Notes: a model not told the origin generated them from the sequence alone. Positions 19,594 through 21,261 are shown, counted from the first letter of the stretch. The stretch: 23,512 bases of DNA from Thermoproteota archaeon (GCA_029258835.1 JAPDJY010000015.1:1-23512); one strand, 5' to 3'. Numbers and translations: made by a program.

Positions 19594-19806
19594 GGGGGCG
19601 TAGCGCAGCCAGAACTATGTGTGGTTAAGCAGCGCGGCTGGCTCCAGAAGCAATGAGTTGAAGCTGGTGCGCTGAAGGAGGATGATGACCTTCTGGAGCG
19701 CCGAGCGAGGAGGCACCAGCCAGGTGATATGTATTAATTACATTGGGGTGGCACCAGCAAGTCGTGGGTTCGCCCTTATTGGGGCCTAGAAATCCCACCG
19801 CCCCCA
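19594..19806 (+). tRNA. tRNA-Trp (anticodon CCA) with three introns (D loop, canonical 37/38, T loop)
   Basis: The acceptor stem is GGGGGCG/CGCCCCC with discriminator A, and the D stem is GCGC/GCGC. The anticodon stem is GCTGG (19637-41) paired with CCAGC (19754-58), giving the loop CTCCAG|A once 19648-19752 (105 nt) is removed. The variable loop is AAGTC. The T arm is GTGGG-TTCG[19773-19790]AAT-CCCAC. The D loop carries an extra ~15-17 nt centred on the hairpin AACTA-TGTG-TGGTT (19613-19626). Confidence 0.85.
19653..19704 (+). ncRNA. box C/D guide RNA embedded in the tRNA-Trp canonical intron
   Basis: There is a degenerate C box around 19653-19661 (AUGAGUUGA), D' CTGA at 19672-75, C' ATGATGA at 19682-88 and a D-like CCGA at 19701-04. 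The D' guide GCTGGTGC (19663-70) is the exact complement of GCACCAGC (19751-58). The D guide CTTCTGGAGC (19690-99) is the exact complement of GCTCCAGAAG (19641-50). The nucleotides paired with the 5th position upstream of D' and D are C19754 (nt 39) and C19644 (C34). Confidence 0.75.

Positions 19807-19860: not shown

Positions 19861-21261
<1,401 letters not shown>

Follow-up and report, generated by a model that had tools for sequence, protein, structure and literature searches.

A tRNA-Trp intron with a duplicated 3' splice junction and a probable self-targeting box C/D guide in an Asgard (Jordarchaeia) archaeon

The window analysed here, a stretch of 23,512 nt (GCA_029258835.1, JAPDJY010000015.1), contains a tRNA-Trp(CCA) gene which is interrupted in the D-loop, the anticodon loop and the T-loop (Table 1). 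With the introns in place, the locus is matched neither by ARAGORN nor by Rfam at gathering thresholds, which may serve as a warning for annotation, since both the tRNA-Trp gene and its putative guide are missed by these methods; after excision of the D-loop insert, the anticodon-loop intron and the T-loop insert, ARAGORN accepts the remainder as tRNA-Trp(cca). The acceptor stem is formed by GGGGGCG/CGCCCCC, the discriminator is A19806, and the CCA end is not encoded. No second tRNA-Trp gene is detectable by exon BLAST and ARAGORN in the 2.72-Mb, 94.7%-complete assembly, and correct processing of this gene is therefore needed. About 370 nt downstream on the same strand (20173-21261) lies an open reading frame for a class I aminoacyl-tRNA synthetase of the Trp/Tyr type (PF00579, 128 bits).

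Table 1. Features of the tRNA-Trp locus, in window coordinates (an arrow marks a splice site).
Feature	Position	Strand	Remarks
tRNA-Trp(CCA) gene	19594..19806	+	ARAGORN call tRNA-Trp(cca) once introns are removed
D-loop intron	19611..19622	+	motif scan; boundaries ambiguous
D guide target	19641..19650	+	nt 31-37 of exon 1 and first three intron bases AAG; 10 contiguous Watson-Crick pairs
Anticodon CCA	19644..19646	+	sequence and ARAGORN; C19644 is wobble position 34
Core 67-nt anticodon-loop intron, site 37/38	19648..19714	+	best bulge-helix-bulge in the gene; holds the complete putative box C/D sRNA
C box AUGAGUU, degenerate	19653..19659	+	exactly 12 nt upstream of D'
12-nt spacer with D' guide	19660..19671	+	paired bases 19663-70; 8 bp with GCACCAGC
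D' box CUGA	19672..19675	+	canonical; invariant across the order
C' box AUGAUGA	19682..19688	+	6 nt after D' (K-loop); canonical; invariant across the order
12-nt spacer with D guide	19689..19700	+	paired bases 19690-99; 10 bp with anticodon loop and junction
D box CCGA, degenerate	19701..19704	+	12 nt after C'
GGAG, 3' strand of central helix	19709..19712	+	pairs C32-C35 (19642-45)
First copy GGC↓ACCAGC	19712..19720	+	duplicated 3' splice junction at the sister-family splice-site position
38-nt lineage-specific extension	19715..19752	+	alignment, L212, BLAST; hairpin AUGUA/UACAU (19729-33/19739-43)
Second copy GGC↓ACCAGC	19750..19758	+	A19753-C19758 are mature nt 38-43; C19754 is nt 39
T-loop intron, 18 nt	19772..19789	+	bulge-helix-bulge; T-loop UUCAAAU remains

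An unconstrained bulge-helix-bulge scan of the gene returns mostly noise, and the scan was accordingly limited to excisions which give a valid tRNA. The T-loop intron found in this way has a central helix GGGU/GCCU, bulges UC↓G and AG↓A and an inner helix of 3 bp. For the D-loop intron several registers within approximately 19609-19625 score alike as a motif; the excision listed in Table 1 is the most tRNA-like choice, yet it leaves an unusually long D-loop of 13 nt.

The host genome belongs to the same order as genome G008 (GTDB kinship), the tRNA-Trp locus of G008 is identical to that of Candidatus Jordarchaeia archaeon QZM_A3, and NCBI assigns the class Jordarchaeia to the kingdom Promethearchaeati (Asgard). 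It follows that the host is an Asgard (Jordarchaeia) archaeon, and the Thermoproteales-style affinity assumed in a first-pass annotation of this DNA is not borne out. Multi-intron tRNA genes have already been documented in the Asgard Freyarchaeia and Atabeyarchaeia (PMC11291895; bioRxiv 10.64898/2026.10.13.758758), and neither of these two reports mentions tRNA-Trp or C/D guides; indeed a tRNA-Trp intron guide is not described for the Asgard phylum in the literature that we searched. Among the relatives compared below are the sister genus (four genomes, G001-G004), the sister family f2 (six genomes) and a near relative, L212.

The anticodon-loop intron carries the features of a box C/D sRNA. 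The consensus of such RNAs is RUGAUGA for the C box and CUGA for the D box, and the standard archaeal geometry is C7-12-D'4-6-C'7-12-D4. The intron has exactly this layout, which both families of the order have in common, and both spacers are 12 nt long here and in families f1 and f2. The boxes CTGA (19672-75), ATGATGA (19682-88) and CCGA (19701-04) had been recognised in the first-pass annotation and are all found at these places, and its description of the terminal boxes as degenerate and of the internal C'/D' pair as canonical agrees with the sequence and with the comparison to relatives. The 9-nt C box which it proposed, AUGAGUUGA, is on the other hand better replaced by the 7-mer AUGAGUU, since the second GA is absent from all four sister-genus genomes; the first spacer is then 12 nt, the earlier figure of 10 nt being due to the over-long box.

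The C box of relatives reads AUGAGAA, AUGAAAU or AUGAGAG, with AUGA kept in all f1 genomes and the next three bases variable, and their D box reads UCGA, CCGA, CGGA or GUGA, the last of these in f2. The terminal boxes keep U2, G3 and A4 of C, so that the protruding U and the G-A of the sheared pairs are retained, together with G3 and A4 of D, whereas C at positions 5-7 and D at positions 1-2 depart from the consensus and vary among relatives. Next to the boxes lies a stem of 2 bp, G19650-C19706 and C19651-G19705, and three nucleotides, AAU, are bulged out. The boxes appear to keep what a kink-turn needs, namely U-G-A in C, G-A in D, a bulge of three nucleotides and a short closing stem. Degeneracy of the terminal boxes in fact looks typical of the tRNA-Trp intron family among the examples that can be read. 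It should however be mentioned that the deviation of C and D from the consensus, the closing stem of only 2 bp and the D' duplex of 8 bp, which is short for an archaeal guide, all count against reading the intron as a guide.

Both antisense elements noted in the first-pass annotation are present. GCTGGTGC (19663-19670) is the exact reverse complement of GCACCAGC (19751-19758), and CTTCTGGAGC (19690-19699) is likewise that of GCTCCAGAAG (19641-19650). Counting five bases upstream from CCGA leads to the partner of C19644, and counting five upstream from D' leads to that of C19754, so that the N+5 rule selects C34 and nt 39 as had been proposed, and these are also the two positions of the Haloferax system (PMC3326292, PMC4090602). 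The earlier statement that the D target exists only in the precursor is correct, but the property is not restricted to that target, since the D' target takes in the two intron bases GC before A38. As both duplexes include intron bases, and complete targets hence exist only before splicing, the substrate would be the unspliced precursor. When the intron interior was subjected to 5000 dinucleotide-preserving shuffles, both matches occurred together in none of them, while the single matches were met in 6 of 5000 (10-nt match to the 5' zone) and 109 of 5000 (8-nt match to the 3' zone).

The complementarities could in principle do no more than fold the precursor for splicing, the boxes being fortuitous and methylation not guided, and it is true that pairing with the anticodon loop is required of every canonical tRNA intron, that the terminal boxes are degenerate and that no Rfam family is matched at threshold. 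The splicing helix, however, is formed by a different intron segment, GGAG (19709-12), and the antisense stretches are placed with 12-nt spacing among four boxes in standard order, with N+5 falling on nt 34 and 39. Furthermore, the same design with co-varying guides recurs across the order and in a haloarchaeon, a member of the group in which the function has been established experimentally for Haloferax (PMC3326292, PMC4090602). We therefore consider a purely splicing-related role very improbable.

Conservation points in the same direction. The same intron occurs in the four sister-genus genomes and in the six of the sister family, and throughout these the D' box, the C' box and the D guide are invariant, while loop and unpaired spacer bases vary. 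The D' guide instead changes in step with its target: here GCUGGUGC faces GC↓ACCAGC, in the sister genus ACUGGUGC faces GC↓ACCAGU, in G005 GCAGGUU faces AA↓ACCUGC, and in G316 GUGUCCAAA... faces AA↓ACCUGUG. Between f1 on the one side and f2 and G316 on the other, positions 2, 3, 7 and 9 of the D' guide change together with the target, positions 2 and 3 pairing with the last two intron bases (GC versus AA), position 7 with nt 41 (A versus U) and position 9 with nt 43 (C versus U). Since positions 2 and 3 pair with intron bases, their covariation is not a by-product of the tRNA stem or structure. Still other D' guide and target sequences, again compensatory, are found in L190 and in the haloarchaeon Natrinema. 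L190, an archaeal metagenome contig (Ga0209394_1000006), has a tRNA-Trp intron of 58 nt with the same string of C' box and D guide. There CAGA stands for the D' box and AGAG occupies the position of the D box, and the D' guide, ACGGGUCU, is matched to nt 38-43 of the same tRNA.

The two guides are not equally constant. In one subclade of f2, comprising G007-G010 and QZM_A3 (L241-L243, L251, L046), the D' spacer AUAUUGGCUGAG is unmatched to nt 38-43, which there read ACUUGC, and the C34 guide is intact. Judging from these spacers, the second guide has been lost or retargeted in this subclade, and the C34 guide is thus the constant element. A strict, intron-specific pattern finds true examples in four families (f1, f2, f18 and f33) among 131 Asgard genomes sampled; the pattern is narrow, and families without a match may still carry a guide. 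A pattern scan of genome contigs gave, among the matches listed, Jordarchaeia QZM_A3 and Natrinema as true examples, most of the others being chance bacterial matches. A looser pattern, TGATGA-N1-8-TCTGGAG, was rejected as uninformative with matches in 347 of 400 Asgard genomes, and a match to it that recurs in genus g29 was likewise set aside, as it is without tRNA-Trp or C/D-guide features nearby and looks protein-coding.

Taken together, box geometry, covariation, the shuffles and the RNP genes described below support the central claim of the first-pass annotation, that the intron is a box C/D guide to C34 and nt 39 of its own tRNA-Trp, and on these sequence-derived grounds a guide function for C34 and C39 is very likely.

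The covariance scan for archaeal C/D RNAs which had been suggested at the outset adds little to this, since Rfam gave only sub-threshold matches. No family reaches its gathering score on the locus, the archaeal C/D families there being species-specific, and the best matches are sR23 (16.7 bits) and sR3 (15.6 bits) against cut-offs of 41-50 bits. The sR3 match, at 19649-19706, is the 5'-most of the weak matches and lies in the register of the proposed sRNA. A shifted register has also to be considered, in which AUGAUGA (19682-88) would be the C box, CCGA the D' box, GCGAGGA (19705-11) the C' box and GUGA (19724-27) the D box, with the 12-nt GGCACCAGCCAG as guide; the spacing from GCGAGGA to GUGA is indeed 12 nt, and the weak matches to sR23 (E 0.047), sR28 and sR19 fall in this register. 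Their scores are however far under threshold, the 3' half is missing in relatives outside this lineage, GUGA is GCGA in L212, and the conserved AUGA/CUGA 5' half would go unexplained, which makes this register scarcely credible. The stretch 19705-19727, with its GCGAGGA, 12-nt spacer and GUGA, rather mimics a further C-box/spacer/D-box unit, and this accounts for the Rfam matches in alternative registers, sR23 and others.

While the guide itself is thus of standard design, the 3' part of the intron is not. The first-pass annotation had pointed to a second, intronic copy of the D' target, and GGCACCAGC is indeed found at both 19712-20 and 19750-58; the switch role attached to it is doubtful, since other lineages lack the duplication. 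The first copy should be called a duplicated 3' splice junction rather than a decoy, given that it lies at the splice-site position of the sister family and forms the best bulge-helix-bulge. Excision of 67 nt at this junction involves an outer helix of 6 bp, a complete central helix CUCC/GGAG (4/4) and bulges AG↓A and GC↓A, and the placement of GGAG plus 2 nt ahead of the splice site is likewise seen in G004 and Natrinema. The 105-nt version (19648-19752) has a central helix of 3/4 with a U-U mismatch and an outer helix of 5 bp. In constrained folds the 67-nt core reaches -44.4 kcal/mol as against -39.5 kcal/mol for the 105-nt version, the unconstrained minimum-energy fold of the precursor (-46.7 kcal/mol) matching neither motif.

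The comparison with relatives is in accordance with the shorter intron. The f2 introns measure 64-67 nt; from the D box to the 3' site the distance is 9 nt in them and, for the first copy, 10 nt in the present intron. The intron of G316 (f33) is 69 nt long, although the D-box position there does not read as a box. The 38-nt extension is absent from the sister genus, the sister family and every other lineage compared, and it is present in L212 with two substitutions. It does not represent a mobile or repeated intron, as it is unique in the genome by BLAST, and comparison likewise led us to reject the idea of a diverged tandem copy of neighbouring sequence. Because the outgroup introns are 64-67 nt and the extension is lineage-specific, copy 1 is most simply the original junction, and the 38 nt with the repeated 9-mer a recent insertion. 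From these alignments and motifs the guide-bearing intron proper is probably 67 nt long and not 105.

A single intron of 105 nt, whose internal GGCACCAGC copy would act as a decoy or switch against exon 1 or the D' guide and so time methylation against splicing, has nevertheless some merits. Its bulge-helix-bulge (outer 5 bp, central 3/4) is usable and no worse than those of three sister-genus introns, its order of C/D unit, hairpin and 3' site resembles the sister genus, in the minimum-energy fold the anticodon stem is built with copy 2 and 19651-61 is paired to 19734-45, and the Natrinema intron also holds an internal copy of a guide target (ACUCCAGA). Yet the motif at copy 1 is better (4/4, outer helix 6 bp, 4.9 kcal/mol more stable), so that an EndA cut is expected there, and copy 1 sits at the position of the sister-family 3' site. 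In addition, the GUGAU/AUUAC helix of the minimum-energy fold is not maintained with the two L212 substitutions, and as no other lineage has the duplication, nothing points to a conserved role as a switch. A single 105-nt intron of this kind hence seems possible but doubtful.

When the precursor takes its minimum-energy fold, the region around the C box, CAAUGAGUUGA (19651-19661), pairs with 19734-19745 over 11 bp with two G-U pairs and one bulge. Such a pairing of the C-box region with the extension would, if the modelled fold is formed, mask the C box until it is undone, and it may perhaps be due to chance.

If the 67-nt core is excised at copy 1, the 38 nt must have a fate of their own. Once the 67 nt have been removed, a bulge-helix-bulge arises again at 37/38, with helices of 5 bp (outer), 3/4 (central) and 4 bp (inner), but this second-step motif has a U-U mismatch and reaches -11.4 kcal/mol, whereas the intermediate attains -19.2 kcal/mol in its minimum-energy fold. 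Three of the four sister-genus introns have imperfect central helices, so excision of the 105 nt in one step would also be feasible, and free-energy folding gives no decision between one-step and two-step splicing. Both routes yield the same mature tRNA, with nt 38-43 coming from copy 2 and copy 1 always discarded. Methylation of the copy-1 C would accordingly be wasted, and in this restricted sense decoy is a fair word for the effect of copy 1 on the D' guide. On balance the sequence leans slightly towards a core of 67 nt, the 38 nt being removed separately, be it in a two-step route or in a mixture of both routes. An obligatory nested splicing, in which the 67 nt leave first, a new motif forms at the same phosphodiester and the 38 nt then follow, is a more tentative proposition that we regard as rather unlikely.

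It could also be envisaged that the 38 nt are an independent non-canonical intron, inserted at site 43/44 or in a shifted register within the 9-nt repeat, since the mature sequence would be identical and introns in that region occur in this genome and in G003. In the primary transcript, however, a central helix is lacking in all 10 registers, and once the first intron is out only 37/38 has one, whereas the G003 insert has a good motif of its own, and an independent intron is consequently highly unlikely. The insert of G003 (L005) is a unique 16-nt sequence, UUAAAAGGUUAAUUGG, between the anticodon stem and the T arm, with a TTGGT direct repeat at its flanks, and its bulge-helix-bulge comprises a central helix AGUU/AAUU and bulges GG↓U. 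The lineage-specific gains, 38 nt here and 16 nt in G003, are both flanked by short direct repeats, which may hint at how tRNA introns originate.

The proteins required for such a scheme are encoded in the genome. Fibrillarin (C12:43014-43688, 323 bits) adjoins Nop5 (C12:42229-42909, 220 bits), and there are two genes of the L7Ae family, two EndA homologues and RtcB. The catalytic domain of the tRNA-intron endonuclease lies in two separate genes (G000 C1:12233-12481 and C6:39796-40056), the open frames of the EndA homologues being 197 and 318 aa. Two homologues would be compatible with a broad-specificity enzyme of two-subunit or fused type, as expected with many non-canonical introns.

The explanation that we consider best overall, with a probability of roughly three in four, is that the 67-nt core of an intron with a duplicated junction constitutes a double-guide box C/D sRNA. 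Its grounds are sequence geometry, conservation, covariation and the protein genes, from which we infer RNP assembly, methylation, the order of cuts and circularisation. L7Ae would bind the terminal kink-turn (AUGA of the C box and GA of CCGA, closed by G19650-C19706 and C19651-G19705) as well as the internal K-loop (CUGA/AUGAUGA), whereupon Nop5 and fibrillarin would assemble. The D guide, paired to nt 31-37 and three intron bases, would direct 2'-O-methylation of the wobble C34, and the D' guide, paired to the last two intron bases and nt 38-43, would direct methylation of C39, the unspliced pre-tRNA being modified in cis or in trans. EndA would then cleave the bulge-helix-bulge, and RtcB would ligate the exons and probably circularise the intron. 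Along one route a single pair of cuts at 19647/48 and 19752/53 would release 105 nt; along the other the 67 nt would be removed first, ligation would put the 38 nt at 37/38 with a new motif, and a second cleavage would follow. The predicted circle junctions are ...GAGGAGGC to AAGCAATG for the 67-nt species, ...GGGGTGGC to AAGCAATG for the 105-nt species and ...GGGGTGGC to ACCAGCCAGG for a 38-nt circle, and the ligation product of the first step would read GGCTCCAG-ACCAGCCAGG.

The occurrence of a putative self-targeting tRNA-Trp intron guide with standard geometry in Jordarchaeia and in at least two other Asgard families supports an ancient origin of the system, and the heavily interrupted Asgard tRNA genes thereby have at least one intron with a plausible job. 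The duplicated junction is in turn a small, concrete case of extra sequence entering a tRNA gene without destroying it. If the nested reading should hold true, the 9-nt duplication would rank among the rare traces of how intervening sequences newly arise in Asgard tRNA genes, a matter left open in the 2026 preprint (10.64898/2026.10.13.758758).

The closest known system is the Haloferax volcanii pre-tRNA-Trp intron, which carries a box C/D sRNA (Clouet d'Orval 2001; Singh 2004; summarised in PMC3326292 and PMC4090602). That intron shares with the present one the host tRNA, the site 37/38, the double guide with its targets nt 34 and 39, and at least one guide duplex which spans the exon-intron junction. 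Natrinema pallidum likewise has CCGA in the D position at a distance of 12 nt from C', and its 3' splice site is preceded by GGAG and two further nucleotides. Unlike in haloarchaea, nt 39 is C here and U there; the core is 67 nt as against 105 nt in Haloferax, the D'-C' loop is 6 nt as against approximately 23 nt in Natrinema, and the Haloferax type furthermore differs in the duplicated 3' junction, the 38-nt extension, the two further introns of the host gene and the Asgard phylum found here. For the Natrinema pallidum intron (L081) a persuasive C box was not found at the 12-nt distance ahead of D'. The anticodon loop is repeated inside this intron (ACUCCAGA), and the intron's D guide could pair with that repeat.

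The notion that such guides are described mainly in Euryarchaeota, as stated in the first-pass annotation, needs qualification, since complementarity without consensus boxes has already been reported from Sulfolobus (PMC3326292). The Sulfolobus solfataricus tRNA-Trp intron is a stable 65-nt circle complementary to nt 34 and 39 and lacks consensus C/D boxes (PMC3326292). The present core is of about the same size, with complementarity to the same two nucleotides and non-consensus C and D boxes, but here D' and C' are fully canonical and the terminal boxes keep the G-A core, which makes the box C/D assignment clearer; circularity, a property of the S. solfataricus intron (PMC3326292), is a prediction for the present one. 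Cm34 in tRNA-Trp is on record for Haloferax, Thermococcus and Sulfolobus (Sulfolobus acidocaldarius) (PMC7668247), and with a median tRNA-Trp intron of 65 nt, a guide-bearing intron of approximately 65 nt is treated as the archaeal norm (PMC4090602).

By its sequence characters the guide is thus an ordinary and well-supported member of the known system of self-targeting tRNA-Trp introns, and the known mechanism is unchanged by it. The unusual local feature is the duplicated splice junction, which may perhaps force nested splicing, and the intron would in that case be an archaeal tRNA counterpart of a stwintron. In fungal stwintrons (PMC5587772) excision of the inner intron creates the splice signal of the outer intron at the same site, a likeness which applies to the two-step reading only; stwintrons are however processed by the spliceosome and not by EndA and RtcB, and in the present case the one-step route would give the correct product as well.
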